Shown here one piece after another: positions 2,640 through 29,927 of a stretch of DNA of 64,000 bases; within the stretch, counting starts at the first letter, position 1; the number at the start of each line of letters is the position of its first letter. The position numbers and the translations under genes are program-made. The stretch is from Dehalococcoidia bacterium (lineage in GTDB: Bacteria > Chloroflexota > Dehalococcoidia > Bin125), in contig OZ220495.1 in assembly GCA_965116225.1 (NCBI GenBank), positions 149,405-213,404 of the forward strand, given 5' to 3'. The notes below the pieces were generated by a model. The model had not been told where the DNA came from, searched no databases, and saw only the letters and a list, made by a program, of their open reading frames with translations.

Positions 2640-2672
2640 GTGGGACGAGGTCTTGCGACCCCGCCCCACTCG
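2640..2672 (-). terminator. Conserved GC-rich hairpin just downstream of paralogue A stop
   Basis: Inverted repeat gagtgggacgagg...ccccgccccactc. Homologous hairpins follow paralogues B (6815-6850) and C (23250-23281). Confidence 0.4.
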
Positions 2673-2697
2673 GGTTGTGCTCGCCGCGCTTCGGCGA

Positions 2698-5178
2698 CTA
2701 GTTGCTGATGTAGAGGATGTCCGAGCGGCCGACCGTGAAATCGCTCGAACCCGGCACCATCGTCCCATCCACAACGGAATAGCGAACCCAGGCCGAGCCG
2801 TTCCACAGGTGGACGGCGCTGGCGCCGCGACCCGAGACCAGACCGAAGACCTCCGACGCCGTTGATTCGACATCGCAGGTCCAGGTGGCGAAGCCGCTCA
2901 AGGCGCTGAGACAGTCCAGACTCGCTTCCGCCGCCGGCGCCGCGGGCGCGCCGGCCGTGCTGATCAGCACCTCGACGTCGCGCGCCGGCGTCGAATCGTC
3001 CGAGACCGTGGCTCGCACCACCGCCCGACCGGCCCCGACCACCGTCAGCGTCGTCGTCGCCTTGCCGGCTACCGTCAGCGCCGACGTATCGTCCAGCACC
3101 GCCACCGCATCGTCGTCGCCGACCAGGTCCGACACCCCGAATGCGACCATGGTGCCGTCCGCCACCGCGTTGCCGCCGGCGTCTGTGACCATCACGCTCG
3201 CCGTCACGCCCTGACCAATCTCGGTCGCCGGCACCGGATCCAGCGTCAGATCGACCTCGTCCGCCGCGCCCACGACCATGAGCGTCGTCGACGCCTTCAG
3301 CGTCCCCGACGTCACCTCAAGTGTGTACGTCCCAGCCGCCAGCGCCGATGTGATCGCCGCGTCGATGTCCAGCATCAGACTGCTCATCATCGAACCCGAC
3401 TGCGTCGTCTCGTACTTGCTCTGCGCCACCAGCGCGCCGCCCGACGTCTTCAGCATCGCCGTCACGGTCGGTACCGTAACCGCCGAACCGGAGGCGTCCG
3501 TCGCGTCAAGCATGAACGAAATCTGGTCGCGCGCGTCCGTGCCGCTATCCGCCTTGGTCGCCGCGTTATAGTCGGCCGCCTGGTCGTTGCCGACGTTGTA
3601 GCCCAACACGTTGCTGGGCGCCGCGCCGATGCTCAGCGAGGTGGCCGGACCCGAGAACCGCACCTGGACCGGGTCGGGTCGATGCACCTGACCGCCCGAG
3701 ATCACGGTCGCCGTGACCGTCGCCGTACCCGGCGACGCCGGCGCCTTCAGCTCAATCCGCATCTTGGCCGGCAGTTGGTCGCCCGACGCCCGCAGACTGC
3801 TCAGGTCGAGCTCGCAGGCCGCCGAGTTCTGCGTCTTGCAGTTCGCCGCCTGAGCCGTCTCGGACCCCATCGCGCCGATGCTCTGCGTCGACAGCGTCCC
3901 GCCCGTGGTCGTGACCACAATCGACGAGACCGCGCTCGCCTCCGACGGCTGGTTGCTCCCGCTCAACACCGACAGCGACAGCTCGGTCGTCCCCGTGCCC
4001 GCCATAATCGTGGTCGGCTCGGCCGTGGTCGCGTCGTCGACGTAGCCGTCCTTGGGCGTCGTATCCGTATCGCCGGCCATCGCCTTGCGCGGCGAACTGG
4101 GGCCGAAACTCACCGTCCCCACCTGGTTCGCCGTCGGACTCACCGTCAGCACCTTCGTGACCGTAATCGGCGTCGTGTCCAGCGCGCCCCGCTGTCCCTT
4201 GACCGTCACCGGGTAATCGCCCGCCGGCGTACCCGACGGAACGACGATCTCAATCGAGATGACATTGGTACCGGTCGTGTCCGATACCGCTCCGGGCAGC
4301 ACATTATCGGCGGTGCACCCTTTGCCCACGTAGGCGTATCCATTACTGCCGCTGCTACTGTCCGAACTGGTGCTGCCGTAGTTAACGCGGAAGCAGGTTT
4401 CCGCAAGCGCCTGATAAATCCAGTAGGCAGTTGCAGCCCTGTACGGATATTCAGAGTTCCTGAAGTATGTCTGCGAATATCCGTCGATCAGCGCGCCCAA
4501 CGGAACCCGAAGCACCCGAATGTCGGGGTCGCTATCCTTGTCGTGGTCGGCCGTGGTGATGGACCGGCTGCGATCCCGATCCAGGTAGTCATCGGGAACG
4601 GACTCGGTGCGCACCATGTCGAAGTTCAGACCGGGAACCTCGGCGCTGTTCACCAGGGCCCCGTTCTTGCCCGTCACCTTGAGCTGCACGTTCGTCCCCG
4701 CCGGCACCACGCCGTCGGACTCGCCCACGAACACGACCTCGAGCGACGGTGTCGCCTCCGGCGTGGTCGAGGGCGCCTGGTCGGCCGCATACGTCGTCAC
4801 CGTGATCGTGTAGCGGTTCAGCGCGATCCCGTTGTCGGTCACGACGATCTCGTAGACCGCCGAACCGGTGTCGTCTTCGCTATCGGCGTCCCGATCCGAG
4901 GGGGTGAAGGTGACCACCCGGCCCGACACCGAGGGGCTGTCCGACGCCAGCGTCTTGGTCCCGCCGCTCTTCCAGACCGCGCTGACCGTGCCCGTGCCCG
5001 GAATCGTCCGCGTGCACGGTACCGCCGCCGGCGTGCCGCCCTCTCCCGCCTGGGTCACCGTGCAGGCGGGCAGCGTCGTCTGCGCCTCAGCCGGTTGCGA
5101 GACCGCCGCCAGCGCGAGCGCCAACGCGACGAGCGCTGCCCCCCCCCCAATAATTTGGTTGATTTGGTTGATGCGCAT
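2698..5178 (-). CDS. Secreted Big_1 (invasin/intimin-type Ig-like) repeat surface protein, paralogue A; in frame only from secondary ATG at 5178
   Basis: 827 aa from ATG 5178 (MRINQINQIIGGGAALVALALALAAVSQPAEA, signal peptide). C-terminal ~480 aa nearly identical to the paralogues at 6870 and 23306, with Big_1-like motifs (GVTASVMVTDAGGNAVADGTMVAF). The G10 tract at 5149-5158 encodes GGG. Confidence 0.75.
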   Translation of the reverse strand: MRINQINQIIGGGAALVALALALAAVSQPAEAQTTLPACTVTQAGEGGTPAAVPCTRTIPGTGTVSAVWKSGGTKTLASDSPSVSGRVVTFTPSDRDADSEDDTGSAVYEIVVTDNGIALNRYTITVTTYAADQAPSTTPEATPSLEVVFVGESDGVVPAGTNVQLKVTGKNGALVNSAEVPGLNFDMVRTESVPDDYLDRDRSRSITTADHDKDSDPDIRVLRVPLGALIDGYSQTYFRNSEYPYRAATAYWIYQALAETCFRVNYGSTSSDSSSGSNGYAYVGKGCTADNVLPGAVSDTTGTNVISIEIVVPSGTPAGDYPVTVKGQRGALDTTPITVTKVLTVSPTANQVGTVSFGPSSPRKAMAGDTDTTPKDGYVDDATTAEPTTIMAGTGTTELSLSVLSGSNQPSEASAVSSIVVTTTGGTLSTQSIGAMGSETAQAANCKTQNSAACELDLSSLRASGDQLPAKMRIELKAPASPGTATVTATVISGGQVHRPDPVQVRFSGPATSLSIGAAPSNVLGYNVGNDQAADYNAATKADSGTDARDQISFMLDATDASGSAVTVPTVTAMLKTSGGALVAQSKYETTQSGSMMSSLMLDIDAAITSALAAGTYTLEVTSGTLKASTTLMVVGAADEVDLTLDPVPATEIGQGVTASVMVTDAGGNAVADGTMVAFGVSDLVGDDDAVAVLDDTSALTVAGKATTTLTVVGAGRAVVRATVSDDSTPARDVEVLISTAGAPAAPAAEASLDCLSALSGFATWTCDVESTASEVFGLVSGRGASAVHLWNGSAWVRYSVVDGTMVPGSSDFTVGRSDILYISN
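5149..5158 (-). repeat. Homopolymeric G10 tract (C10 on plus) inside the signal-peptide coding region of paralogue A
   Basis: Counted directly. Homologous tracts are G12 (9272-9283) and G13 (25789-25801). Confidence 0.8.
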
Positions 5179-5472
5179 CGGCGCATGTTGGCGCGCATCC
5201 GCGCAAGTCTCTGAACCATCTCCAGCCCCTTTCCCGAGACCAGTCGCCGCCCCGTCCGCTCGGGGCGCTCTCCGCCCAAGTATCGCACAGGCAATACCGC
5301 GCAAGACCCCGTATTTCGGTTCTTTTCAAGAATTTACGCTCTGGTTACGATCATTCTGCCGATTTCCGCGGCCCGCCTCCGTCGTACTCGCGCTCTGCCC
5401 GGGCCACAAGAGAACGTCATGTCCGCGCCGGGCGCGGCATGACCGTAGGGGGGGCGCGCCCCTCACCCTTCA

Positions 5473-5850
5473 CTAACTCCGATGTACTCTTCGCGCCCGG
5501 CGGCACTCTAGCGTGAAGGCGTTTTCGTCAGACTCGTTGCGCGCCCACTCGCAATCCAACGGACCGAGCCATTCGAACTCGACCTCGACGGGCTCCGACC
5601 AGCGTTGGCACTGCGATGAGTAGGCGCTGACCCGTACGCCCAGCGTGGGCCAGTTCTGGATCGGCAGATTATCGATCGTCCGCGACAGATCCGCGTCCGC
5701 GGAACCAAATTCGACCGCGTCTGCAACATTCGCGGCCGTCCGTCTCGACCTGCGCGTCCCACTCGGCTCTGGCCTTGCGCAGGGCTGTAATGGCGGCTGA
5801 ATCAAGCATTGCCGACTCCCGCCCGATATCGCACGCTTTGGCTTTGCCAC
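5473..5850 (-). CDS. Hypothetical small protein (weak call)
   Basis: ORF has a W-rich, non-biased C-terminal half (NWPTLGVRVSAYSSQCQRWSEPVEVEFEWLGPLDCEW). Start uncertain. Confidence 0.25.
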   Translation of the reverse strand: MAKPKRAISGGSRQCLIQPPLQPCARPEPSGTRRSRRTAANVADAVEFGSADADLSRTIDNLPIQNWPTLGVRVSAYSSQCQRWSEPVEVEFEWLGPLDCEWARNESDENAFTLECRRARRVHRS

Positions 5851-5895
5851 GAGTATAGGAAGCAGGCGCTGGTCGGGCCGGTTTCGTGGCGCTAG

Positions 5896-6522
5896 CTAGC
5901 CGCCGTTGCCGTTGGCATCAGGGTTGGGGTCGGGATTGCCGTTGGGATTGGGGTTAGCGCCGGGATTGCCGTTGGCATCGGGGTTAGGGTCGGGATTGCC
6001 ATTGGCATCGGGGTTAGGGTCAGGATTGCCGTTGGCATCGGGGTTAGGGTCGGGATTGCCGTTGGGATTGGGGTTAGGGTCGGGATTGCCGTTGGCATCG
6101 GGGTTGGGGTCGGGATTGCCATTGGCATCGGGGTTGGGGTCGGGATTGCCATTGGCATCGGGGTTAGGGTCGGGATTGCCGTTGGCATCGGGGTTAGGGT
6201 CGGGATTGCCGTTGGGATTGGGGTTAGCGCCGGGATTGCCATTGGCATCGGGGTTAGCGCCGGGATTGCCGTTGGGATTGGGGTTAGCGCCGGGATTGCC
6301 ATTGGCATCGGGGTTAGCGTCCGGTGGCGTTGGCGTCGGGGTTGGCGGCGGCGGCGGCGGCGGGGCTGGTGGCGTCGGCGTCGGCGTCGGGGTCGAGGCT
6401 GAAGGCCTATCGCCACCGCTGCAGCCGTCTCGGGCGTCAACCGACTCAATGGCGGCGATGGCTCCGATGATCACGGCGATGCTCAGCGCTGCCGTCGCCG
6501 CTGCTATCCGTAGGCGTTCCAT
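5896..6522 (-). CDS. Membrane-anchored/secreted low-complexity protein with Pro/Thr linker and about 14 NP(D/N)ANG decapeptide repeats
   Basis: ATG at 6522 preceded by AAGGAG (spacing 6). Hydrophobic N-terminus (MERLRIAAATAALSIAVIIGAIAAI), then a PTPTPTPPAPPPPPPPTPTPTPP linker and a tandem (DANGNPDPNP)n array. The plus-strand alternative frame (GLGSGLPLAS)n has no signal or RBS. Confidence 0.55.
   Translation of the reverse strand: MERLRIAAATAALSIAVIIGAIAAIESVDARDGCSGGDRPSASTPTPTPTPPAPPPPPPPTPTPTPPDANPDANGNPGANPNPNGNPGANPDANGNPGANPNPNGNPDPNPDANGNPDPNPDANGNPDPNPDANGNPDPNPDANGNPDPNPNPNGNPDPNPDANGNPDPNPDANGNPDPNPDANGNPGANPNPNGNPDPNPDANGNGG
5935..6315. repeat. 30-bp tandem repeat array (about 12-13 units, variants gggattgccgttggcatcggggttagggtc)
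   Basis: Direct reading of the sequence. Units differ by single substitutions (agggtc vs agcgcc vs ggggtc). Confidence 0.85.
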
Positions 6523-6814
6523 GAGGATCTCCTTCTCTGTCGCCCCGCCTGTCAGGGCACTCCCGGATATATTCGGGCAGTCGCGTGTTATGGCCAAGCT
6601 GGCAAACCGCTGCCGAACAGGTACCAGAGAGGGATAGGAAGCGGGCGAGCGGGTCGCGGAGGCTGGGCTTCGAGCGTCAGCTCGCCTTCGGACGCGTCTG
6701 GTCGATCAGCGGTCGAATGCGGCGTTGCGCACGGGGGTGGGAATGGGGCAGTTGCGCGCCGACGCCGGAGGCGAGGGCATGATCGGCATCTCCGCAGCGG
6801 AACTTAACGACGAG

Positions 6815-6850
6815 CGGGGCGAGGTCTGGCGACCCCGCCCCGCTTGGGTT
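6815..6850 (-). terminator. Conserved hairpin downstream of paralogue B
   Basis: gagcggggcgagg...ccccgcccc, homologous to 2640-2672 and 23250-23281. Confidence 0.4.
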
Positions 6851-6869
6851 GTTCGACTCTGCTCAGCGG

Positions 6870-9354
6870 TTAGTTGCTGATGTAGAGGATGTCCGAGCGG
6901 GAGACGGCGAAGTCGCTGGAGCCGGGCACCAAGGTTCCGCCGACGACCGAGTAGCGGATCCAGGCGGTACCGTTCCACAGGTGGACGGCGGTCGCGCCCC
7001 GACCGGAGACCAGACCGAAGACCTCGGAGGCCGTCGATGTGACGTCGCAGGTCCAGGCGGCGAAGCCGGTCCAGGCGCTCAGACAGTCCAGACCCACGGT
7101 CTCGGCCGCCGCCGCCGCGGGCGCGCCGGCCGTGCTGATCAGCACCTCGACGTCGCGCTCCGGCGTCGAGTCGTCCGAGACCGTCGCTCGCACGACCGCG
7201 CGACCGGCGCCCACGACCGTCAGCGTCGTCGAGGCTTTGCCGGCTACCGTCAACGCCGTCGTATCGTCCAGCACTGCCACCGCGTCGTCGTCGCCGACCA
7301 AGTCCGAGACGCCGAACGTGACCATCGTGCCGTCCGCCACCGCGTTGCCGTCGGCATCGGTGACCATCACGCTCGCCGTCACGCCCTGACCAATCTCGGT
7401 GGCCGGGACCGGATCGAGCGTCAAATCGACCTCGTCCGCCGCGCCCACGACCATGAGCGTCGTTGACGCCTTCAGCGTCCCCGACGTCACCTCCAGCGTG
7501 TACGTCCCCGCCGCCAGCGCCGATGTCATCGCCGCGTCGATGTCCAGCATCAGATTGTTCATCATCGAACCCGACTGGGTCGTCTCGTACTTGCTCTGCG
7601 CGACCAGCGCGCCGCCCGACGTCTTCAGCATCGCGCTCACGGTCGGCACCGTGACCGCGGAGCCGGAGGCGTCCGTCGCGTCGAGCATGAACGAAATCTG
7701 GTCGCGGGCGTCCATGCCCGCGTCCGCCTTGGTCGCCGCGTTGTAGTCGGCCGCCTCGTCGTTGCCGACGTTGTAGCCGAGCACGTGACTCGGCGCCGCG
7801 CCGATGCTCAGCGAGGTGGCCGGGCCGGAGAACCTGATTTGGACCGGGTCGGGTCGATGCACTGTGCCGCCCGAGATCACGGTCGCGGTGACCATCGCCG
7901 TACCCGGCGTCGCCGGCGCCTTGAGCTGAATGCGCATCTTGGCCGGCAGCGGATCGCCCGACGCCTTCAGGCTGGTCAGGTCGAGCTCGCAGGCAGCCTG
8001 ACCGCCGGTCTTACAGGTCGCCTTCTGGTCGACCAGGGCGCCGGCCGGGCCGATCTGCTCGGTCGACAGCGTGCCGCCCGTGGTCGTAATCACAATCGAC
8101 GAGACCGCGCTGGCCTCGGACGGCTGGTTGCTCGCGCTCAATACCGAGAGCGACAGCTCGGTCGTGCCCGTGCCGGCCATAATCGTGGTCGGCTCCGCCG
8201 TGGTCGCGTCGTCGATGTAGCCATCCTTGGGCGTCGTATCCGTATCGCCGGCCATCGCCTTGCGCGGCGAACTGGGGCCGAAGCTCACCGTCCCCACCTC
8301 GTTCGCTGTGGGGCTGACCGTCAGCGTCTTCGAGATGGGCGTCAGCGGCGTCGGGTCCTTCAGGCTGCGCTGACCGTACAGCGTGACGACGTAATCACCG
8401 GCAGGCGTGCCCCTGGGCACGACGAGCTCCAGCTCGTACTGGGAGGTATGGAGCGCGCCCGCCGTTTCGCCCTCGTTGCAATAGGATGGGGGGTTGGTAT
8501 TGATTGCCTTTTGGCAGCGACCCCGGAGCAGGAACTCGGCTAAGATGTACTGTAACTGCCCACTCCCGTATTTCGGATTGATTCTGCCAGTGAAGTGCGG
8601 CTCGGATGAGGTGTAGATGTCCGAACCGAGCGACGATGAGCGCGTGATCCGCACATCCATCTTGTCATCCACATCGTGATCCTTGTCGTCGACGGTTTCG
8701 TCCCCATTCCGATCCAGCGTGTCGTCGCCCCAGTAGGCGGTCCGCTTGCCGAAGAAAGTCAACCCTCCCGAAACGGTGATCCGCGTCGGCCATGCATCGT
8801 TCTTGGAGACGTACCTGACGATGACGTTCGTGCCCGCGGTGACGACGCCGTCGGACTCGCCCAGGAAGACGAGCTCGAGCGAGGGCGTCGTCGTCGTGGT
8901 CGCCGGCGCCTGGTCGGCCGCGTAGGTGGTCACCGTGATCGTGAAACGGGCCAGCACGATCCCGTTCTCGGTCGCGATGATCTCGTAGACCGCCGAACCG
9001 GTGTCGTCGTCGCTATCGGCGTCCCGATCCGAAGGCGTGAACGTCACCACCTTCCCCGACACCGAGGGGCTGTCCGCCGCCAGCGTGCTGTCCTTGCCGC
9101 TCTTCCAGACCGCGCTGATCGTGCCCGTGGCCGGAATCGTCCGCGTGCAGGGCACTGCCGCGGGGTCGTCGCCCTCTCCCGCCTGGGTCACCGTGCAGGC
9201 GGGCAGCGTCGTCTGCGCCTCAGCCGGCTGCGAGACCGCCGCCAGCGCTAGCGCCAACGCGACTAGCGCTGCCCCCCCCCCCCAATAATTTGGTTGACTT
9301 AGTTGATGCGCGTCGGCGCATGTTGACGCGCATCCGCGCCAGGCTCTTGACCAT
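6870..9354 (-). CDS. Big_1 repeat surface protein, paralogue B; out of frame at the G12 tract in this sequence
   Basis: SD-linked start ATG 9354 (gggaagagagg-N5-ATG, MVKSLARMRVNMRRRASTKSTKLLGGGG). The conserved signal core and mature protein (AALVALALALAAVSQPAEAQTTLPACTVTQ...) are in another frame and are only in frame if the tract is G11 or G14. The stop-to-stop ORF is 6870..9404. Confidence 0.65.
9272..9283 (-). repeat. Homopolymeric G12 tract in the signal-peptide region of paralogue B
   Basis: Counted directly (9 C + 3 C on the plus strand). Confidence 0.8.
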
Positions 9355-9445
9355 CTCGGCCTCTCTTCCCGGTATTCAGTCGCCGCCTCGTCCGTCGGAG
9401 GCATTGTTGCCTATTATCGCACAGCCGAACCGCGATATCGCCGTG

Positions 9446-9454
9446 CCCCCCCCC
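9446..9454 (-). repeat. Second homopolymeric tract (G9) in the conserved 5' promoter-like region of paralogue B
   Basis: Lies between an A/T-rich block (TAAATTTTTTTAC) and a putative extended -10 (TGCGATAAT at about 9408-9416, minus strand). Confidence 0.6.
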
Positions 9455-9527
9455 GTAAAAAAATTTACGCTCTAGTTACAATCGCCTGATTCCCATGCGT
9501 TGCGCGGGAATGAAGAAATTGAGTGGC

Positions 9528-11885: not shown

Positions 11886-12096
11886 ATGCGGGCGTGCAGG
11901 CGATCGGCCGGCGCAACCGTCCTTTGGCGAACAATGCCGGACTCGAGTTCACTTCCATACGGAGCGGAAGCGGACTGATGTTGGTGGGCGGCGCGGCGTT
12001 CCGCTGAGGCGACGGTAAATCGCCCGTAAATCACGTTGAACGGGAGGGCGGTAGATAACGTTTGCGGCGCCTGCGGCGTGCAATGGTGGGCATCAG

Positions 12097-14961: not shown

Positions 14962-14991
14962 CGAGCCGTCCGCGCTCGATCGGCTCCGCGC

Positions 14992-15030
14992 CAGGGGGCG
15001 GGGGTTGGCTACGGCCCGCCCCCGCTCTCG
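14992..15030 (+). terminator. GC-rich hairpin after the FN3/Calx gene
   Basis: agggggcggg...cccgcccccg inverted repeat 30 nt after the stop. No T-tail. Confidence 0.35.
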
Positions 15031-15233
15031 GCATGCGGCTCCGTCCTGATCGGCGACGCCCGCGCCGCGGGCGTAATGATGTAGAGCGGTAGAGCGCCTG
15101 CCCGCGGCGCAGGCAGGCGACCGCTTCCCGCGACCTGATCGATCCACGCATCCCCGGCATCAGGGTCGCCGTCGCGGTCCGTCGCGCAATCGTTTGCCGC
15201 ATCTGTCGGAGCGCAGGCGATCGGCCTGCGGAT

Positions 15234-15266
15234 AGCCTGGAACTAGCCTGAGACTAGGCTGAGATC
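15234..15266 (+). promoter_or_regulatory. Three tandem 11-bp direct repeats (TAGSCTGRRAY) abutting the start codon of the ATP-grasp gene
   Basis: tagcctggaac / tagcctgagac / taggctgagat, then ATG 15267. Confidence 0.4.
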
Positions 15267-16490: not shown

Positions 16491-16551
16491 GGCTGACTGA
16501 GGCTGAGGTCACGATCCCGCGCCGCCGGACGGTTCGGTGCCGCGCGGCAGA

Positions 16552-17931: not shown

Positions 17932-18118
17932 GGCGAAGCTGGGTGGGGCGGGTCGACGGGTCGGATGAACGAGTCGGGCCGGCCGCCCGAGCCGATTCAG
18001 GATACGACCGAGGCGAGGCGGCTCGGCGCCGCCCGACCGACTAGACTGCCCGCGGTGCCAGCATGGGCGGCGCGCAGCGCGATCTCGGCGATCCGCGCAA
18101 TCCACGAAAGGCGGGCGC

Positions 18119-19246: not shown

Positions 19247-19265
19247 GGACGTCGCGTCGCGCGGC

Positions 19266-19590
19266 TCAGAGCCGACTGAAGATTGCCGTCATCATCCCGA
19301 ACATGCCCGCGAACCCCAGACCGATCGCCCGGGTCATCAGGGTGAGACGCTTCTGCAATTCCCCGAATCGCTGATCCATCTCGCGCTACAACGAATCCCG
19401 CATCTCGGCGCGGACCTACGCCAGGCCGTCCTGCAACTCCTGTCGCGCGCCGTCTGCGAAATCACCCGGGTCAGACCGAGCTCGAACGCTTGCCGATCGA
19501 CGCCTGATCCATCCCCGCCTCGACCAGCCCCTCCTCAAGATCGTCCGACTATGCCTCAATCGCCGGCTCGCGCATCGTCTCAGTCGTCAT
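19266..19590 (-). pseudogene. Decayed copy 1 of a small DUF1640-like coiled-coil/TM gene
   Basis: Homologous to 22680-23145, but has an in-frame TAG after MTTETMREPAIEA and lacks the coiled-coil expansion. Confidence 0.5.
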
Positions 19591-19779
19591 GCCCTTGCCT
19601 CCGCTTTCTGCATACCGCATCCCCATCTCCTCTGCGGAACGCCGCGAACGAGGCGGAGGCGGAGTTGTGCGACTCCATCCCTCGGGCTGGCCGCCGTCCT
19701 CGTCGGCGCCATGCTATCGGGGCAGCGTGAGGTCGGTTGCGGTCCTTGCGCTGGCGCCCCGCCAGGCGCGGGTTGCATT

Positions 19780-20400
19780 GGTCAGTGCCCGATTGGGTTC
19801 CCGACGATCGTTGCGATGGTTGCGTTGCTGGCGCGAGTGGTGGCTGTCGCTGAGGGGCCATTCGGGGTTCTTGGCGATCGTTGCGAAGATTGAGGCGGCG
19901 TCAGGTGCGTCTCTGGCGGTGGTTGCGGTGGTTGGCATGCCGATCCGAGGGCGATGTTGGCGTTGATGGCATCGGTCGCCATCGGTTCGATCATTCGTGC
20001 GGCGGATATGGCGACAATTGTGGTGGTTGCGGTTGGCTTCCTGATGTCGGTTGCTCAGCTGACGCGGGTCGCGATTGCGTTCCCAAGGTTAGTTGCGATA
20101 GTTAATATCGCTCGTTCGAGAGCGGCGTTGGCGTTAATGGCATCGATCGCCATCGGTTCGATGATCCGCGTGGGAGATATGGCGACGGGTGCGTTCCTGG
20201 CGTGAGTTGCGTTGGCTGGGAGTGATAGCAGTTATCGGGTTGGATGCGATGGTCGGCTCGGCGGCGCTTGTGCGCCTGGCGACGACGGGAGCGATTGAGT
20301 TGCGGTTGGGTTCCCGGCGATCGTTGAGTTGCCGATGCCGGTTGCGCGCCCGGCTGCGGTTACGTTGATTGCGTTGGAATGCGGATCGACGTTATAGCTC
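19780..20400. repeat. Degenerate tandem repeats (period about 170 bp, GTTGCG/GATGGC-rich); probably a decayed coding repeat related to the big paralogues
   Basis: ggcgttgatggcatcggtcgccatcggttcgat... recurs at 19957 and 20127. A related segment at 22430-22620 flanks a paralogue C-terminal fragment. Confidence 0.5.
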
Positions 20401-20436
20401 CCTCGTTGGCTTTCTGGCGATGGTTGGGGCGTTGCG

Positions 20437-20476
20437 GCGCTCGCGGGGGCGGGCCGACCGCGCGTCGGCCCGCCCC
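20437..20476 (-). terminator. Perfect 17-bp GC hairpin downstream of the FN3 gene
   Basis: cgcgggggcgggccgac cgcgcg gtcggcccgcccccgcg. Confidence 0.5.
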
Positions 20477-20489
20477 CGCGATCAGCGGT

Positions 20490-21659
20490 CTACTTGCTCC
20501 ACCAGCCGTAGTGGCGGCTCTTCGACCATTGTCCGCATTGGTCGGAGTAGGCCTCCACCTGCACGCGCAGATAATGACCGGTGCCAGTCGGCAGACCGGT
20601 CACTGTCTTCGACAGCGTCGCAGCGGCGGAGCGGAAGTACTCGTCCGCGTAATCCACGTCGGTATACGCGTCGAGGTAGACGTAGTAGTTGTACTCGATC
20701 ATTTGCGCCGCGTACTTGGTCGCCTGGTTGCCGCCGGCGCTGACGTAGGCGCAGCGCTTGTCGCGCTTGCCACCGATGGCTCGCGGCTTCTGCCAGCTGA
20801 TCGTCACCTCACCCGACGTGCTCGTATCGACGCTCAGGTCGCGCACCGGAAACGGCGCGCGCAACTTCCGCGTCGCCGGCGCAGACGGATTCGTGTTCGA
20901 CGCCGACGTCCAGAAAAACGCCGTCGCCAACTCCGATTCCTCCCCGCAACCGTCCTCCGACTCCGCGTACACCTCCACGTAATGCCGGTACGGATAGTTC
21001 AACTCGTCCACGTACCAACTCGTACCGCTATCGATGCGCAGCGACTCGGCCACCATCGGCATCGTCGGCGCCACCTCGTACACGCGCACGAAGTAGCCGG
21101 CCGTGGGACAATAGCCGCCGTCGCCGTGGCCGCCGCTCGTCCAGGAAATCAGGGCGCTATCGTAGCCCGCCTGCACCGTCAACCCGGTCGGCGTACTGGG
21201 CAACGTTCCAGCCGCGCCGTACGGCTTGGCGCTGACCGTATCCGAGGCCGGGCCGATCCCGCCTGAGTTCTTGGCCCGCAGCTCGAAGCTGTAGCTCACC
21301 CCGCTGCCGTCCAGCGACCTGACCCGGTAGAAATCCGTCCAGCTGCCGCCGGCCGCAGTCCAGCTCCCCCAGGCGCCACTGCCCTTGCGCTGCCGATATT
21401 CGTAATTGTCGATGGCCCGAACCTCCGCCATCGACGGATGATTCCACTTCAGCGTGACCGATCGCGGCCCCGCAGTGGCGAACAACCCCTCCGGCTTGGT
21501 CAGCGTCACGCTCTGCCCGAGCGCCGACTCCGAGCCGAACGCGACCAGCCCGACCAGCAATCCGGCCATCGCCAGCAGACCCCAACGAGTCAGGAACCGA
21601 GACCTGTGATCAGCACGCAATATGCGAAGAGGGGCGTTGAGCCCTGGTGGGTAAGACAT
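20490..21659 (-). CDS. Secreted fibronectin type III domain protein
   Basis: ATG 21659 (MSYPPGLN...RWGLLAMAGLLVGLVAFGSESALGQS, signal peptide). FN3-like motifs (SVTLKWNHP, YEYRQRKGSGAWGSW, YSFELRAKN). Confidence 0.7.
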   Translation of the reverse strand: MSYPPGLNAPLRILRADHRSRFLTRWGLLAMAGLLVGLVAFGSESALGQSVTLTKPEGLFATAGPRSVTLKWNHPSMAEVRAIDNYEYRQRKGSGAWGSWTAAGGSWTDFYRVRSLDGSGVSYSFELRAKNSGGIGPASDTVSAKPYGAAGTLPSTPTGLTVQAGYDSALISWTSGGHGDGGYCPTAGYFVRVYEVAPTMPMVAESLRIDSGTSWYVDELNYPYRHYVEVYAESEDGCGEESELATAFFWTSASNTNPSAPATRKLRAPFPVRDLSVDTSTSGEVTISWQKPRAIGGKRDKRCAYVSAGGNQATKYAAQMIEYNYYVYLDAYTDVDYADEYFRSAAATLSKTVTGLPTGTGHYLRVQVEAYSDQCGQWSKSRHYGWWSK

Positions 21660-21894
21660 CCGAACATCTCCTGTGCATCTCCAACGATGCCAGCGCCCAA
21701 CCCGAGCGCCCGGCGATAGCGGCACATTAGCCACGACGCCCGCAGCCGATCAAACGCGCCAAGCGATATTCGGTAACCTTCGCCCGAATCGAGTTAAGCG
21801 GAACAAGCTTATCGTCGACCAAATTCGTTATGCTCGCGCCCGGCGCGAGCGCGGCGACGCACCGAGCAGGTGGAACGTCGGCGAGCAGCGCGGT

Positions 21895-22143
21895 TCAGAG
21901 AGCCGATTCAGCATCACGCTGAGCATCGCGCTCATTAAGCCAAACATACCCGCGAACCTGTGCCAAGCCGTCCTGCAATTCCCAGCGGGTCGCCGTCTGC
22001 GAGATCACCCGCGTCAGACCCAGCTCGAGCGCCTGCCGGTAGGCCCGCGCCGACGCCTGATCCATCCCCGTCTCGACCAACCCTTCCTCCAGATCGTCCG
22101 ACCATGACTCAATCACCGGGTCGCGCACTGTCTCAGTTGTCAT
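21895..22143 (-). pseudogene. Copy 2 of the DUF1640-like small gene; TM segment lost by frameshift/deletion
   Basis: MTTETVRDPVIESWSDDLEEGLVETGMDQASARAYRQALELGLTRVISQTATRWELQDGLAQVRG, then out of frame relative to copy 3. Fused directly to the paralogue fragment upstream. Confidence 0.45.
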
Positions 22144-22199
22144 GCCGTCGCCTCCGTCGTCGGCATACCGCATCCCCTGAGCGGCGGCGCTGCGCTGGC

Positions 22200-22500
22200 G
22201 ACGCGAGACCAGACCGAACATCTCCGACGCCGTCGATTCGACATCGCAAGTCCAGGTGGCGAAACCGGTCAAGGCGCTCAGGCAGTCCAGACTCGCCTCG
22301 GCCGGCGTCGCCGACCCGGCCCGCCCGCCGTGCTGATCAGCACCTCGACGTCGCGCTCCGGCGTCGAATCGCCCGACACCGTCGCCCGCACCACCGACCG
22401 ACCGTCGCCGACCACGGTCAGCGCAGCGAAGATTGAGTCGGCGTCGGGCGCGGCGCTGGCGGTCGTTGCGAAGGTTGGGTTGCTAGCGCGAGGGCAGCGT
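22200..22500 (-). pseudogene. Fragment of a fourth Big_1 paralogue (C-terminal region only, frameshifted)
   Basis: Encodes VVRATVSGDSTPERDVEVLISTAG and LDCLSALTGFATWTCDVESTASEMFGLVS in two different frames. Lacks the last ~60 codons and the terminator. Confidence 0.55.
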
Positions 22501-22679
22501 TGGCGACGGTGGCGTCTGTCGAGTAGGCGGCGCCTGGAGTTATGCGATGTCAGTTGCTCAAGTCGCATAGGTTGCGATTGCGTTCCTTGCGGCGGCGTGA
22601 TGCCGACGCCCTACACGGGAATCACGGACCGGCCAAGGACGAGGAAAAGGCCAGCAAGCGAAGTGGCGGCCCGCAGGGC

Positions 22680-23145
22680 TCAGAGCCGAACGAGGAGCGC
22701 GGTCATAAACCCGAACACGCCCACGAACCCCAGACCCACCGTCCAGGTCAACAGATTGAGCCGCTTCTGCATCTCCCCGAAGCGCTGATCCATCTCCCGC
22801 TGCAACTGATCCCGTATCTCCCGCATCTCAGCGCGCAACTGGTCGCCCATTTCCTTCATCTCAGCGCGCAGCTGTTCCCGCATCTCCCCCATCTCCCGAC
22901 GCAGGTCGCCCATCTCCCCGCGAACTTGCGCCAAGCCCTCATGTAGCTCTTGCCGACCCTGCGCCAAGCCGTCCTGCAGCTCCTGCCGCGTTGCTGTCTG
23001 CGAGATCACCCGCGTCAGACCCAGATCGAACGCCTGCCGATAGGCGTGCGCCGATGCCTCATCCATCCCCACCTCGACCAGCCCCCTCCTCCAGATCGTC
23101 CGACCATGCCTCAATCACCGGGTCGCGCACTGTCTCAGTCGTCAT
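22680..23145 (-). CDS. DUF1640-like small coiled-coil protein with C-terminal TM, copy 3 (frameshift at a G5 run near the 5' end)
   Basis: From ATG 23145 the frame breaks after EEG (gaggagggggctggtc; copy 2 has one fewer G). Downstream frame gives MDEASAHAYRQAFDLGLTRVISQTATRQELQDGLAQ...LRAEMKEMGDQLRAEMREIRDQLQREMDQRFGEMQKRLNLLTWTVGLGFVGVFGFMTALLVRL. Confidence 0.5.
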
Positions 23146-23249
23146 GCCGTCGCCTCCGTCGTCGGCATACCGCATCCCCTAGGCGGGGCTCGGTCAGGCC
23201 CGCGCGGGGGTGCGGCATGACCGTAGGGCTAGCGCGCCGTTAACTACAA

Positions 23250-23281
23250 GTGGGGCGGGGCCTTGCGACCCCACCCCACTC
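23250..23281 (-). terminator. Conserved hairpin downstream of paralogue C
   Basis: agtggggcgggg ccttgcga ccccaccccact. Confidence 0.45.
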
Positions 23282-23305
23282 GGGCTGTTCGCCGTTCCTT
23301 GGCGG

Positions 23306-25845
23306 CTAGTTGCTGATGTAGAGGATGTCCGAGCGGCCGACGGCGAAGTCGCTGGAGCCGGGCACCATCGTCCCATCGACCACCGAGTAGCGGACCCAGG
23401 CGGAGCCGTTCCACAGGTGGACGGCGCTGGCGCCCCGACCCGAGACCAGGCCGAACACCTCCGACGCCGTCGATTCGACATCGCAGGTCCAGGTGGCGAA
23501 GCCGCTCAAAGCGCTGAGACAGTCCAGGCTCACCGCCTGGGCCGGCGCCTCGGGCGCGCCCGCCGTGCTGATCAGCACCTCGACGTCGCGCGCCGGCGTC
23601 GAGTCGTCCGAGACCGTGGCGCGCACCACCGCGCGACCGGCCCCGACCACGGTCAGCGTCGTCGAGGCTTTGCCGGCTACCGTCAGCGCCGACGTATCGT
23701 CCAGCACCGCCACCGCATCGTCGTCGCCGACCAGGTCCGACACCCCGAACGCCACCATGGTGCCGTCCGCCACCGCGTTGCCGTCGGCATCGACGACCAT
23801 CACGCTCGCGGCGACGCCCTGACCGATCTCGGTCGCCGGCACCGGCTCCAGCGTCAGATCGACGCTGTCCGCCGCCCCCACGACTATGAGCGTGGTTGAC
23901 GCCTTCAGCGTCCCCGACGTCACCTCCAGCGTGTACGTCCCCGCCGCCAGCGCCGATGTGATCGCCGCGTCGATGTCCAGCATCAGACTGCTCATCATCG
24001 AACCCGACTGCGTCGTCTCGTACTTGCTCTGCGCCACCAGCGCGCCGCCCGACGTCTTCAGCATCGCGCTCACGGTCGGTACCGTAACCGCCGAACCGGA
24101 GGCGTCCGTCGCGTCAAGCATGAACGAAATCTGGTCGCGCGCGTCCGTGCCGCTATCCGCCTTGGTCGCCGCGTTGTAGTCGGCCGCCTCGTCGTTGCCG
24201 ACGTTGTAGCCCAACACATTGCTGGGCGCCGCGCCGATGCTCAGCGAGGTGGCCGGACCCGAGAACCTGATCTGGACCGGGTCGGGTCGATGCACCGTGC
24301 CGCCCGAGATCACGGTTGCGGTCACCGTCGCCGTACCCGGCGACGCCGGCGCCTTGAGCTGAATCCGCATCTTGGCCGGCAATGGATCGCCCGAGGCCCG
24401 CAGACTGGTCAGGTCGAGCTCGCAGGCCGCCTGGCCGTTGCTCTTGCACTTTGCCTTCTGGTCGACCAGGGCGCCGGCCGGGCCGATCTGCTCGGTCGAC
24501 AGCGTCCCGCCCGTGGTCGTGATCACAATCGACGAGACCGCGCTCGCCTCCGACGGCTGGTTGCTCCCGCTCAACACCGACAGCGACAATTCCGTCGTGC
24601 CCGTGCCCGCCATAATCGTGGACGGCTCCGTTGTCGACGCGTCATCGATGTAGCCGTCCTTGGGCGTCGTATCCGTATCGCCCGCCACCGCCTTGCGCGG
24701 CGAACTGGGGCCGAAACTCACCGCCCCCACCTGGTTCGCCGTCGGACTCACCGTCAGCACCTTCGTGACCGTAATCGGCGTCGCGTCAACCGCGCCCCGC
24801 TGTCCCTTGACCGTCACCGGGTAATCGCCCGCCGGCGTCCCCGACGGAACGACGATCTCAATCGAGATGACGTTGGTGCCGATGGTCTTGTTGGCGCCCC
24901 CTACCTGTCCGGGGAGCGGATTGTCGCTGTCGGCGCCCGAGCACCCCGCGCCCAGGTAACTGCCGTCGCTCGAACTGCTCGTACTGATGTACTCGACTAC
25001 GCCGCCAACAGTCCTTGAGCCGCCGTAGTTATAGCGGAAGCAGGTTGCCTCAAGCGCCTGATAAATCCAGTAGCTGGCGCCCGACCTGTATGGGAATTCC
25101 TGATTGGAGACTTCGATCTTTGACCCATCCCTCGACTCGATGTACGGACCTAACGCAACCCGAGCCACGCGCACATCGGGGTCGCTATCCGCGTCATGGT
25201 CGGCGGTGGTCCAGGAGCGGCTGAGGTCTCGATCCAGATAGTCATCGGGAACGTACTCGGTGCGCAGGAAGTCGAAGTGCAGACCGGAAGCCGCGATGCT
25301 GTTCACCTGGGCGCCGTTCTTGCGGGTCACCTTGAGCTGCACGTTCGTGCCCGCCGGCACCACGCCGTCGGACTCGCCTACGAACACGATCTCCAGCGAG
25401 GGGGTCGTCTCCGGTGTGGTCGAGGGCGCCTGGTCGGCCGCGTAGGTGGTCACCGTGATCGTGTAGCGGTTCAGCGCGATCCCGTTGTCGGTCACGACGA
25501 TCTCGTAGACCGCCGAACCGGTGTCGTCGTCGCCGGTCACCCGGTCCGACGGCGTGAAGGTCACCACCCGACCCGACACCGAGGGGCTGTCCGACGCCAG
25601 CGTCTTGGTCCCGCCGCTCTTCCAGACCGCGCTGACCGTGCCCGTGCCCGGAATCGTCCGCGTGCAGGGCACTGCTACCGGCGTGCCGCCATCCCCAGCC
25701 TGGGTCACCGTGCAGGCCGGCAGCGTCGTCTGCGCCTCAGCCGGCTGCGAGACCGCCGCCAGCGCAAGCGCCAACGCGACGAGCGCTGCCCCCCCCCCCC
25801 CAATAATTTGACGCGCATGCGCGCAACGATGTGAGTCATCTTCAT
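23306..25845 (-). CDS. Big_1 repeat surface protein, paralogue C; out of frame at the G13 tract
   Basis: SD-linked start (aaagggag ATG AAG ATG at 25845/25839; MKMTHIVARMRVKLLGGGG) is in frame with the mature protein only if the tract is G11 or G14. The stop-to-stop ORF is 23306..26116. Confidence 0.65.
25789..25801 (-). repeat. Homopolymeric G13 tract in the signal-peptide region of paralogue C
   Basis: Counted directly (2+10+1 C on the plus strand). Confidence 0.8.
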
Positions 25846-25931
25846 CTCCCTTTCGCAGGATCCGTCTCCGCCCCGAACGGCCGAGGCGCACTTGGCAAGT
25901 ATCGCACGGCGTCGCATGTCGTATCGCCGTA

Positions 25932-25943
25932 CCCCCCCCCCCC
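25932..25943 (-). repeat. Second homopolymeric tract (G12) in the conserved 5' region of paralogue C
   Basis: Same position as the G9 tract of paralogue B, next to AAATTTTTTGAC and upstream of TGCGATACT. Confidence 0.6.
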
Positions 25944-26102
25944 GTCAAAAAATTTACCCGTGATTTACAATCAACGAACCCGTAACCCGTCGATTGACGT
26001 GATCCATCTCCGTCATGCCCGGCTGGCCCGGGGCTCTCGCTTGCAAGGCGGGGAACAAGACGCCCGCGCCCGGCGCGGGCATGCATGACAGGAGGCGGCG
26101 TT

Positions 26103-26942
26103 TCAGATCTCAGCATGCGCGCCGCGATGGCGCATGCGGGCGACGAAGACGGGCGGAATGTCGGGGAGATGAGCCCAGCTGAGGCGCATGGTCGGCTCGT
26201 CGGCGTCGCCCTCGCCGCCGTCGCTGATCGACGGTTCGCGGATGCCGTCGAGCACCCAGCCGCGGTCGAAGGCGGCGCTGAACAGCTCGGTCAGGGTTCG
26301 ATGGAAGTACGGCTGGAGGCTGGGTTGACCGACCGCGGCGATGCCGCGCTGCGCGCCCGTGTTCCGATAGCCGCTGATGCGCACGCCTGTTTCTTGGATC
26401 AGTTCGCCGTCCGGCGTCTCCATGCGCTCGGCGAACAGGCGCACGTCGGGTCCTGGATTGAAGGCGGGATGCAGGATCGAGAAGACGAACGGCGCGTTGT
26501 CGGCGAGGACGAGCGGGAGCATGTCGAACAGCGGCGTGATCTCGGCGATATCCATGAGCGCCATGTTGCAGACGACCGCGCCGAACGGCGCGCCGGCGGC
26601 GCCCGCCAGCGCGGCCAGGGCGGAACGATCAGTGGCGTCCAGGCGCATCCAGCGGATTTTGACGCCCGTGGAGCGCTGATCGGCTCGGTCGAGTTGCGCC
26701 TTCGAGCCGTCGGTCGCGGTCACCGCAACGCCGTGACCGGCGAGCTGTCGAGCGAAGGCGCCGTTGCCGCAGGCGATCTCCAATACCCTGTTCGGCAGCG
26801 GCTGGAGCAGCTCCAGGCTGGCGGGGAAGACCAGCGTTCGCTGCCAGTAGTTGCCCTCGTCGCCCTGGACCTGGTCCCAGAATTCAGCGTTCTGCTCCCA
26901 CGCCTCCAGCGATTCGTCGTTGTGTTCGGGATAGTCGATCAT
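26103..26942 (-). CDS. Class I SAM-dependent methyltransferase
   Basis: VLEIACGNGAFARQLAGHGVAVTATDGS (motif I). Start ATG 26942 (MIDYPEHND). Confidence 0.75.
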   Translation of the reverse strand: MIDYPEHNDESLEAWEQNAEFWDQVQGDEGNYWQRTLVFPASLELLQPLPNRVLEIACGNGAFARQLAGHGVAVTATDGSKAQLDRADQRSTGVKIRWMRLDATDRSALAALAGAAGAPFGAVVCNMALMDIAEITPLFDMLPLVLADNAPFVFSILHPAFNPGPDVRLFAERMETPDGELIQETGVRISGYRNTGAQRGIAAVGQPSLQPYFHRTLTELFSAAFDRGWVLDGIREPSISDGGEGDADEPTMRLSWAHLPDIPPVFVARMRHRGAHAEI

Positions 26943-29915: not shown

Positions 29916-29927
29916 CCCCCCCCCCCC
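29916..29927 (+). repeat. C12 homopolymer immediately upstream of TATATT, 37 nt before the DinB-like start
   Basis: tcgagCCCCCCCCCCCCatatattcaacc...ATG(29965). Confidence 0.7.

Follow-up and report, generated by a model that had tools for sequence, protein, structure and literature searches.

The window (the whole 64 kb stretch analysed here) carries three long paralogous genes, A, B and C, all on the minus strand with their 3' ends at 2698, 6870 and 23306, together with a decayed, frameshifted remnant of a fourth copy. All four elements had been recognized in the first-pass annotation, and we place the remnant at 22185–22423, where 240 bp are 87.5 % identical to the part of copy A that encodes aa 711–788; beyond the remnant follows a second copy of the small gene found downstream of copy C. 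What had been taken for a family of three full-length copies in fact comprises at least 16 paralogues on the same 2.6-Mb contig, and the ranges 6870–9354 and 23306–25845, proposed as full-length genes, are not multiples of three. In A, B and C alike, reading from the conserved ATG is interrupted by a poly-G tract within 44–54 codons.

2698–5219, minus strand: copy A, from the conserved start ATG (5219–5217) to the stop (2698)
6870–9354, minus strand: copy B, from the conserved start ATG (9354) to the stop (6870)
23306–25839, minus strand: copy C, from the conserved start ATG (25839) to the stop (23306)
22185–22423, minus strand: decayed, frameshifted remnant of a fourth copy (family aa 711–788)
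2638–2671, minus strand: 3' hairpin of copy A, 15-bp GC-rich stem with a GCAA loop, terminator-like
6812–6845, minus strand: 3' hairpin of copy B
23248–23281, minus strand: 3' hairpin of copy C

Copies A, B and C each lie in a different genomic neighbourhood, and the DNA repeat unit begins some 35 nt ahead of the conserved start codon and ends a little past the 3' hairpin, with flanks that are 82–100 % identical per 60-nt window. Each copy is a complete gene that has a promoter-like region, a ribosome-binding site, a leader and a terminator to itself. The conserved 3' hairpin noted earlier is well founded: a GC-rich stem of 14–16 bp follows every stop codon in A, B and C, with compensatory changes and z of -5.2 to -5.6.

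The product is a secreted protein of about 830 aa built as a chain of generic Ig-like beta-sandwich domains, in the order Sec-type signal peptide, conserved N-terminal beta-sandwich, variable head and constant C-terminal module (about 480–500 aa of Ig-like sandwiches and a small terminal domain). The shared signal peptide and the conserved ends described at first pass are evident, in that the h- and c-regions are identical among the copies (AALVALALALAAVSQPAEA|QTT), the N-terminal domain (about 110 aa) is 81–94 % identical among A, B and C and 71–100 % identical across the 14 paralogues compared, and the C-terminal 475 aa are 86–95 % identical among the three. The genes are under selection (dN/dS 0.19–0.28 in the C-terminal part), and the constant module defines a wider family in which it is always C-terminal. 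The earlier description of Ig-like Big_1 repeats stands as regards Ig-like beta-sandwiches but not as regards membership of the Big_1/invasin group: in a domain search the window copies gave no significant Big_1 match and only sub-threshold MG2 and NPCBM_assoc matches, while three of 19 family members had a weak Big_1 match (best 1.6e-6). Like invasin and intimin, these proteins would form secreted rods of tandem Ig-like beta-sandwiches; unlike them, they have neither an N-terminal inverse-autotransporter barrel nor a C-terminal lectin-like tip, and the orientation is reversed, with the constant module C-terminal and the variable part nearer the N terminus. The protein is presumably located at the cell surface; a search for surface anchors returned no LPXTG motif, transmembrane segment or known anchor domain.

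The variable cassette can be delimited in each copy, and a short exchanged patch is found in the constant part of copy A.

4174–4773, minus strand: variable domain of copy A, class I, 200 aa
8352–8906, minus strand: variable domain of copy B, class II, 185 aa
24782–25426, minus strand: variable domain of copy C, class I, 215 aa
3848–3886, minus strand: exchanged patch in copy A, 20 consecutive informative sites that set B and C against A

A hypervariable middle of about 200 aa is thus present as first described, but it does not differ completely between copies: A and C are 67 % identical here, B is about 40 % identical to either, and all of them can be aligned on a shared framework comprising strands, two cysteines and a D-x-D..PDVR motif. 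Judged from these alignments, the variable middle is a single homologous domain that has diverged into three classes. In copy A it has two conserved cysteines and consists of a beta-sandwich that bears a disulfide-containing, hypervariable insertion about 100 aa long.

Among the paralogues the N-terminal, variable and C-terminal segments are differently combined, and synonymous divergence is 0.17–0.32 in the flanks but reaches about 1.1 when the variable domain is compared between classes. The 39-bp patch in A (the ..QTANCKTQNSAAC.. allele, also present in paralogue P0013 and in the other species) lies in a flank where most of the remaining sites group A with C. These mosaic, homogenized flanks are clear traces of recombination between copies, in line with that part of the first-pass interpretation. 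We consider it unlikely, however, that programmed gene conversion is the main driver of antigenic or adhesin variation here, as first proposed, carrying variable cassettes from one copy to another after the manner of Neisseria pilE/pilS or Borrelia vlsE. The recombined segments, the contrast in synonymous divergence, the 20 consecutive discordant sites and the truncated remnant would all agree with such a system, and the genes resemble pilE/pilS, vlsE and Campylobacter fetus sap in having many homologous copies, conserved ends, variable middles and inter-copy recombination. Nevertheless, the window copies and the intact paralogues are all complete genes in differing neighbourhoods, with no single expression site fed by silent cassettes and no promoterless cassette array in the window, so that programmed cassette switching is unsupported; the sole fragment holds constant C-terminal sequence and no variable cassette; and the exchanges are equally well explained by ordinary evolutionary recombination between paralogues. 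Nor was an invertible promoter found.

Long poly-G tracts lie at two positions of the genes.

5139–5148, minus strand: coding poly-G of copy A, G10, flanked by the basic leader (..STKSTKLL) and the hydrophobic core (AALVAL..)
9272–9283, minus strand: coding poly-G of copy B, G12
25789–25801, minus strand: coding poly-G of copy C, G13
9446–9454, minus strand: upstream poly-G of copy B, G9
25932–25943, minus strand: upstream poly-G of copy C, G12

The coding tract separates the leader from the hydrophobic core of the signal peptide in all three copies, and two of them (B and C) bear another tract ahead of the promoter-like region. These tracts, a key feature of the locus, were absent from the first-pass annotation. 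They are not due to chance: the window has six G/C homopolymers of 9–13 nt where 0.06–0.43 would be expected from its own run-length decay, and five of the six occupy the two homologous positions in A, B and C, the sixth being a C13 at 29916–29928. No G/C run of 8 nt occurs in the 64 kb; apart from these six, no homopolymer exceeds 7 nt, and there is strong depletion of shorter runs as well. Moreover, GGG makes up 16 % of the glycine codons in the window's genes, yet the coding tract amounts to three or four consecutive GGG. Both tracts recur at the same positions, with differing lengths, in homologues from two other Dehalococcoidia genomes (about 48 % protein identity), namely OZ242034.1 (coding tracts G11, G11, G12 and G12; upstream tracts G13, G15, G18 and G19) and ERZ25068678 (upstream G14, coding G12). 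Interruptions have cost A and L003 the upstream tract, and L004 and the leaders of P0007 and P0011–14 the coding tract; no poly-G was found in more distant relatives (37–46 % identity). Once they reach 8 nt, G/C tracts are known to be hypermutable, and they underlie phase variation in Neisseria, Campylobacter, Haemophilus and Helicobacter.

The conserved start codon, with a GGAAGG/GGGAG ribosome-binding site 6–9 nt upstream and a leader M-x-x-x-LAR[M/I/L]R behind it, is common to the species. When tract length was simulated in A, B and C, the frame from this start was full length only with G8, G11 or G14 (840 aa for A, 827 aa for B and 843 aa for C), and all three copies are therefore OFF in the assembly: at the assembled G10 the frame of copy A from 5219 ends after 54 codons, and at G12 and G13 those of B and C stop after 44. 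Copy A is open only from a second, in-frame ATG at 5178 (826 aa), which is without a Shine–Dalgarno-like sequence. An ATG at 9404 in copy B, in another frame than the conserved start and used by the public annotation, would give 844 aa. Copy C, whose leader has a 32-bp deletion relative to A and B, is publicly annotated from a start downstream of the tract (MALALAAV..) and has an in-frame GTG at 25891. Owing to these in-frame starts the OFF state may not be absolute, and transcriptional slippage on G10–13 could restore some in-frame mRNA. In the assemblies L002, L003, L007, P0003 and P0006 are ON, and A, B, C, L001 and L022 (by annotation also P0005 and P0008–10) are OFF, individual states that are uncertain since the tract lengths come from consensus long-read assemblies (the record names suggest a HiFi/metaMDBG-type pipeline), in which homopolymer length is the least reliable call. 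The G7 frameshift that splits the L022 gene may be an assembly error.

Could these be ordinary, stably expressed paralogues, with the poly-G either functionless (a glycine linker and a GC-rich spacer passed on by duplication) or an artefact of assembly? The genome is GC-rich (65–70 %), a Gly3–4 linker would be harmless, long-read homopolymer lengths are prone to error, and about one-third of the tract-bearing copies are ON, as random errors would predict. Against this, runs this long are otherwise confined to the single C13, GGG is a minority glycine codon, and the non-coding upstream tract keeps its position in three genomes despite diverged flanks; further, lengths of 9–19 go far beyond a one-base assembly error, independent assemblies have the same architecture, and tracts of such length are established to be physically hypermutable. 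We hold this explanation to be very unlikely. Equally improbable, in our view, is constitutive expression through RNA polymerase or ribosome slippage (programmed recoding), with an in-frame product at any tract length and the tract setting the dose. Long homopolymers are known for transcriptional slippage, for example poly-A in endosymbionts, and although the consensus puts most copies with a tract out of frame, they are subject to purifying selection; such selection is, however, equally expected for genes that are ON part-time, in-frame copies are present in the same genomes, and recoding explains neither the second, non-coding tract nor the diversity of lengths between copies.

The upstream tract has its own sequence setting.

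5279–5348, minus strand: promoter-like region of copy A, direct repeat and extended -10-like motif

In copy A a GTAACC/GTAAAT direct repeat (11 bp apart, 5332–5348) and an extended -10-like motif, TGTGCGATACT, at 5279–5289 accompany a decayed upstream poly-G (..ATACGGGGTC..). The G9 of copy B is 8 nt downstream of a GTAACT/GTAAAT repeat (9463–9479) and 27 nt upstream of a -10-like GATAAT (9413–9418), and the G12 of copy C is downstream of a GTAAAT/GTAAAT repeat (25952–25968) and 28 nt upstream of a -10-like GATACT (25898–25903). Bordetella fim (poly-C), N. meningitidis porA and opc and Mycoplasma vlp (poly-A) likewise have a promoter-region homopolymer of changing length, with porA having a coding tract in addition. 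In all these systems the promoter homopolymer is situated in the -35/-10 spacer, whereas here no canonical sigma-70 -35/-10 pair turned up, either around the tract or across it, whichever length was simulated. The tract seems instead to lie upstream of the core promoter, adjoining the AT-rich repeat, so that it would act, if at all, in a manner closer to altered UP-element or activator spacing (as in nadA).

We suggest that the genes probably constitute a contingency family based on slipped-strand mispairing and operating in the manner of Neisseria opa/pilC. A contingency family had rightly been proposed at first pass; the signature of programmed variation that the sequence contains is the poly-G tracts, located at the start of the signal-peptide coding sequence and ahead of the promoter. 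Each gene would be switched on its own by slipped-strand mispairing at its homopolymeric G tracts. Depending on its length, the coding tract would bring the gene body into the frame of the conserved start codon or shift it out of that frame, the gene being ON at 3k+2 G (with one glycine added or removed) and otherwise OFF, yielding a 44–54-aa peptide. The upstream tract, between the conserved AT-rich GTAAAT-N5-GTAAAT element and the core promoter, would alter spacing and helical phase and so presumably the level of transcription. Provided that slippage occurs at a useful rate and that the promoter tract does tune transcription, a population would display changing subsets of head domains, their diversity being kept in ancient classes while recombination or gene conversion homogenizes and reshuffles the flanks. 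The benefit may lie in escape from phage or host recognition, or in a change of adhesion.

The closest parallel in mode of working, though not in family membership, is Neisseria Opa. There too, about a dozen complete, dispersed genes per genome are switched separately by a slippery repeat within the sequence that encodes the signal peptide, conserved parts enclose surface-exposed segments that are hypervariable, and inter-locus recombination yields mosaics. The Opa repeat is, however, a CTCTT pentamer and not a homopolymer, and there is no second, promoter tract. The Opa proteins, which belong to a Gram-negative pathogen, are small beta-barrels of the outer membrane and are related to the present proteins neither in sequence nor in fold. 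Neisseria pilC and the poly-G genes of Campylobacter jejuni and Helicobacter pylori share a 5' coding G tract of about 8–13 nt with frameshift ON/OFF control, in pilC within the signal-peptide region as here; they encode unrelated proteins and are single genes, as opposed to a 16-member family with a variable head, in pathogens of low or medium GC content.

Poly-G runs in the start of a signal peptide are a hallmark of random on/off switching in pathogens such as Neisseria, and our literature search found no report of poly-G on/off switching in Chloroflexota. The present genome, as first surmised, is not that of a pathogen. Its relatives come from marine-sponge microbiomes, among them the Aplysina aerophoba sponge metagenome MKWU01 (PMC5649159), and this Dehalococcoidia bacterium is therefore probably host-associated, with a sponge as the probable host.

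The analyses presented here indicate that the three full-length minus-strand paralogues in the window (copies A, B and C) belong to a surface-protein family whose anatomy matches that of slipped-strand contingency loci, and we suggest, on sequence grounds, that its members may be switched by changes in the length of poly-G tracts near their starts. The copies had been recognized in the first-pass annotation and they stand: their open frames end at 2698, 6870 and 23306, and the products align over the whole length. The DNA repeat unit common to the three extends from about 35 nt 5' of a conserved start codon to just beyond a hairpin 3' of the stop; this hairpin, also reported previously, closes a 4-nt loop with a GC stem of 14–16 bp in which the copies differ by compensatory changes, and it folds with z-scores of -5.2 to -5.6. 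The poly-G tracts themselves had been overlooked. In the alignment of the 5' regions, a coding tract lies between the leader and the hydrophobic core of the signal peptide (G10 in A, G12 in B, G13 in C), and an upstream tract lies about 95–130 nt 5' of the start (G9 in B, G12 in C, decayed in A). Of all G/C runs in the window, six exceed 7 nt (9–13 nt each), and five of these are the family tracts; shorter runs comprise 46 of 5 nt, four of 6, two of 7 and none of 8, and the analytic expectation from this run-length decay is 0.06–0.43 runs of at least 9 nt per window, against the six observed. GGG makes up 16% of glycine codons.

Both tracts recur in other Dehalococcoidia genomes. Among five loci in OZ242034.1, the coding tract is kept in four (G11, G11, G12 and G12; one decayed) and the upstream tract likewise in four (G13, G15, G18 and G19; one decayed), and ERZ25068678 carries an upstream G14 and a coding G12. 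Across the three window copies and these six loci from two other genomes, the tracts occupy the same aligned positions with differing lengths (coding 10–13 nt, upstream 9–19 nt), as read from consensus long-read assemblies, for which homopolymer length is the weakest point. That position but not length is kept across about 50% protein divergence, and at a non-coding site as well, argues for selection on the tract itself. A further G7 at 2974-2980 of L022 (the ERZ25068678 locus), where the annotated ORFs 1887-3020 and 3001-6849 overlap and together resemble one fn3-rich family gene, may be another slippage site or a homopolymer assembly error, and warns against trusting tract lengths.

In silico, the length of the coding tract decides whether the body of the gene is in frame with the conserved start. 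The start conserved across species (A 5219, B 9354, C 25839) has a GGAAGG/GGGAG ribosome-binding site and encodes M-x-x-x-LAR[M/I/L]R... When tract lengths of 7–16 were read in silico from this ATG, all three copies gave the full-length product (827–843 aa) only at G8, G11 and G14, and 28–56 aa at any other length; the assembled G10, G12 and G13 of A, B and C yield 54, 44 and 44 codons. A change of one repeat unit thus toggles each copy between a full-length and a truncated product in silico. With these tracts and this toggling, the earlier proposal of a contingency family is borne out in the sense of a contingency-type surface family. In the other genomes, loci L002, L003 and L007 are in frame and L001 is out of frame, as is L022 by virtue of its G12 against the in-frame G11 of L002 within the same flank. 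The OFF state is possibly leaky, through transcriptional slippage or alternative in-frame starts (A 5178, B 9404, C 25891). Within the leader, A and B have a 20-bp stretch in duplicate (ATGCGCGGATGCGCGTCAAC / ATGCGCCGACGCGCATCAAC; 9302-9339 in B), of which C (25802-25839) lacks 32 bp. A T/C difference gives A another ATG (5178) in the +1 frame, and in principle a signal peptide could thus arise in two of the three tract phases.

Public gene models vary accordingly at their N-termini. In the models for P0003 and P0006 the leader is complete; those for P0002 (copy C), P0005 and P0008-10 open at an internal codon (MALALAAV.. or MALAAV..), and that for B at an unrelated upstream ATG. At least 7 of the 16 paralogues of this genome appear mis-annotated, with truncated or wrong N-termini, as gene callers take the out-of-frame state for gene structure. 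Six paralogues (P0007, P0011-14 and P0020) have interrupted tracts and are fixed in frame.

The upstream tract adjoins a promoter-like region. On its 5' side stands a conserved direct repeat, GTAA(A/C)(C/T), 11 bp apart, and 27–28 nt on its 3' side a -10-like GATAAT or GATACT, which in A and B is preceded by TG-C to form an extended -10-like TGCGATA(A/C)T; OZ242034.1 has a TTGAYT hexamer 8 nt downstream. A consensus scanner called no sigma-70 promoter in the three window 5' regions. A role for the tract as promoter spacer was rejected, since no -35/-10 pair spans it at lengths of 4–21 in the six loci scanned, and this would place it upstream of the putative core promoter, where its length would alter the distance and phase to the AT-rich element.

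The first-pass annotation had described near-identical ends around a completely different middle. The conserved ends hold (flanks 82–100% identical per 60-nt window, with a deep trough between them, and mean pairwise identities among the paralogues of this genome of 65–87% in the ends versus 7–30% at residues ~136–335); the middle, though, is one homologous domain with shared framework strands, a D-x-D..PDVR motif and two cysteines, falling into three classes that are 24–40% identical to one another.

Classes of the variable domain
Class I: A and C, 67% identical to each other
Class II: B, P0003 and P0005, 72–76% identical
Class III: the remaining copies, 37–69% identical

Segments have apparently moved between these genes. 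P0011 and P0012 combine the N domain of class-II genes (94%) with a class-III variable domain, and P0001 (copy A) has an N domain 97% identical to that of P0006 and a variable domain just 33% identical to it. Synonymous divergence is 0.17–0.32 in the flanks versus ~1.1 in the variable domain between classes. Further, within the constant part of A (3886-3848), 20 consecutive sites have B and C alike and A different (Fisher p ~1e-10 before scanning correction). The segment mosaics, the divergence contrast and this patch bear the marks of concerted evolution with recombination among paralogues. The exchange between copies proposed earlier is accordingly upheld as evolutionary history, through the mosaics and the 20-site patch, and not as a cassette-conversion system. 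Silent-cassette gene conversion of the pilE/pilS type would involve one expressed locus with promoterless partial donors, and that layout was not found; A, B and C are each equipped with an AT-rich element, a -10-like motif, a ribosome-binding site, a leader and a terminator of their own, and the single partial copy consists of constant sequence. A diversity-generating retroelement was also rejected: self-BLAST of the window returned only the paralogues, with no extra copy of any variable region, the variable-region differences include many indels and affect all bases, and no reverse transcriptase was found in the subset of window ORFs scanned. Positive selection on the variable domain was likewise not adopted, as its overall dN/dS (~0.6, versus 0.19–0.28 in the C-terminal part) lies above the flanks and not above 1, which is no proof.

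We consider 'Ig-like surface protein' a reasonable label on the basis of the predicted models; the Big_1/invasin membership assigned previously is not established. A, B and C had no significant match in Pfam or NCBIfam (only sub-threshold MG2 and NPCBM_assoc) and none to Big_1 (PF02369) at E<0.1; within the 19 family members, Big_1 matched weakly in 3 (best 1.6e-6) and MG2 in 7. Nor did Pfam matches reveal an inverse-autotransporter beta-barrel at the N-terminus or a lectin-like binding domain at the C-terminus. AlphaFold models the full-length protein (pLDDT 68.6) as an all-beta chain of sandwiches: the signal peptide leads straight into the N and variable domains, which are followed by some three Ig-like domains and, last, a small C-terminal domain. 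On direct reading the signal peptide consists of a basic leader, Gly3-4, AALVALALALAAV and SQPAEA-QTT, with an AEA-Q cleavage site. Foldseek with the full-length model found only generic multi-Ig proteins (e.g. complement MG arrays, the SbsB S-layer protein, PrgB and titin), and none of the fold searches went beyond generic Ig, MG, fn3, pilin and S-layer sandwiches. Predicted alone, as had been proposed, the variable domain reached pLDDT 82 and pTM 0.80; its model had no Foldseek match in the PDB below E 1e-3, and an insertion of ~100 residues is without counterpart. Surface anchoring and biological benefit are presumed; no anchor was identified in the family protein.

The family is large and previously undescribed and, as judged from sequence searches, appears rare, lineage-restricted and modular. 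A protein search with copy A found 16 paralogues, all on one 2,601,622-bp contig that is the window's own genome, and further relatives of 41–51% identity on two other contigs of ~2.5 Mb, which a genome scan placed in MAGs labelled Dehalococcoidia bacterium (OZ242034.1, with five loci, and CBDCDO010000001.1); another member lies in a third closed genome, ERZ25068678. The family itself, its regulatory DNA and a small neighbouring gene of 80% identity, all in common with these relatives, point to the window's genome being Dehalococcoidia as well. Family clusters at 90% protein identity have one member each. A profile search of 1.84 billion cluster representatives returned just 378 relatives, nearly all aligning on profile positions ~300–819 through to their own C-terminus. 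Their common part is a C-terminal module of ~500 aa ending ..HLWNG.AW.RYS...G..VPGS.DF......DI.YISN, carried in full by A, B and C; their N-terminal parts vary and include fn3 arrays. Remoter members (37–46%) come from the metagenome MKWU01 of the marine sponge Aplysina aerophoba (PMC5649159) and related JGI sets, so that the Chloroflexota lineage of the window is probably sponge-associated. MAGs of the present sort derive from HiFi sponge data via metaMDBG (PMC12586988). An exact-pattern scan of JGI metagenomes for the tract plus signal peptide gave no match and no second sample of the same strain.

Distant members (L005, L006 and L008-L020) have no poly-G. In this sister clade a conserved 13-bp near-palindrome occupies the same point, at the first codon of the signal peptide, and also closes each gene unit, the units being bounded by TGAGACWGTCTCA. 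The unit start (e.g. L010 2223-2250, L013 4105-4132, L019 2339 and 5513) is TGAGACTGTCTCA, encoding [M/L]RLSHLT from ATG, CTG or TTG, and the inverted copy GACTTTTGAGACAGTCTCA lies at the unit end, past the terminator. Where units stand in tandem, TGAGACTGTCTCA and GACTTTTGAGACAGTCTCA abut, and the resulting 13+13 palindrome spans the start codon (z -5 to -8 for the RNA hairpin); long inverted repeats flank the unit where an array ends. A few poly-G-free copies have an in-frame MIGTLARKRT leader instead. Possible roles for the near-palindrome are as a recombination or cassette site, as an operator and as a translational hairpin; tentatively, its position would fit a family built as a whole round switchable starts. 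The palindrome GAGACWGTCTC of these gene starts is absent from the window.

Taken together, the family displays what appears to be a dual poly-G switch architecture, conserved across species, on surface proteins of a Chloroflexota lineage: a known kind of system in an unexpected setting. Neisseria opa and pilC, as established knowledge has it, offer likely functional parallels to its slippery start, the proteins being unrelated. In host-adapted pathogens, phase-variable surface families are a textbook trait, and nearly all work on them has, to our knowledge, been done in cultured Proteobacteria, Campylobacterota and Mollicutes; for Dehalococcoidia, Chloroflexota and sponge symbionts, a literature search turned up nothing on phase variation. 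Sponges are one of the oldest animal lineages. We tentatively advance, as possible rather than probable, the joint reading that an uncultured sponge-associated Dehalococcoidia has a true contingency system, in which each of up to about 10 variable surface proteins per cell, out of 16, would be under the control of a transcriptional and a translational poly-G switch acting independently, giving combinatorial, heritable and reversible coats in a mutualistic or commensal symbiont, the family as a whole being built round switchable starts with devices that differ by lineage. If the switches work, they would imply strong, fluctuating selection on the sponge-symbiont surface (by phage, host phagocytosis, innate recognition or varying adhesion), the gene set and sequence motif would be directly checkable in existing HiFi read sets, and MAG annotation would need care.

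The window also includes further repeat-bearing and secreted products.

22680-23114, minus strand: small coiled-coil tail-anchored protein gene, intact copy
21895-22272, minus strand: small coiled-coil tail-anchored protein gene, truncated copy
5906-6343 (gene ~5892-6521), minus strand: small secreted protein between A and B, with signal peptide and Pro/Thr linker
12097-14961, plus strand: large fn3-rich secreted protein, six fn3 plus Calx-beta
20490-21734, minus strand: large secreted protein of the same kind, one fn3
29916-29928, plus strand: C13 run, sixth long homopolymer, unrelated to the family, ATATATT directly after

The decayed family fragment noted at first pass was recovered by self-BLAST as 240 bp at 22185-22423, frameshifted and 87.5% identical to A; it covers aa 711–788 only, which is constant sequence. 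One coiled-coil gene copy lies downstream of C and the other downstream of this fragment, which points to duplication of the family gene and its neighbour as a unit, with later deletion. The intact copy holds a 33-bp tandem repeat (22790-22903), and the protein is 80% identical to genes adjoining the family member in L022 (1136-1558). The small secreted protein, without Pfam match, has 14.7 tandem 30-bp units (89% matches) encoding NPDANGNPDP-like repeats and is potentially another length-variable surface or secreted product. The family relatives P0017 and P0019 have fn3 arrays in place of the N-terminal parts, so that surface proteins of this lineage seem to swap these modules. Behind every family gene in the sponge-metagenome loci comes a gene of ~200 aa (L012 2897-3595 and equivalents), whose product combines a signal peptide and a QQEPPHRFYGTGATAGD domain with an acidic linker and, at the C-terminus, a transmembrane segment that has a basic tail; the window too has the QQEPPHRFYGTGATAGD domain, ~60% identical, at the N-terminus of a 676-aa ORF (33984-36014, minus strand; no Pfam match) that is not beside A, B or C.

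A DinB_2-family gene (29965-30573) begins, with an ATG at 29965, 36 nt downstream of the C13 run, which may be a promoter-located tract; the consensus scanner called no promoter there. Window GC is 57–71% per 2 kb, with dips to ~56–57% at 30001-32000 and 58001-60000 versus 63–71% elsewhere, and the first dip contains a 541-aa ORF (30803-32428, minus strand) without Pfam match, which may be foreign DNA.
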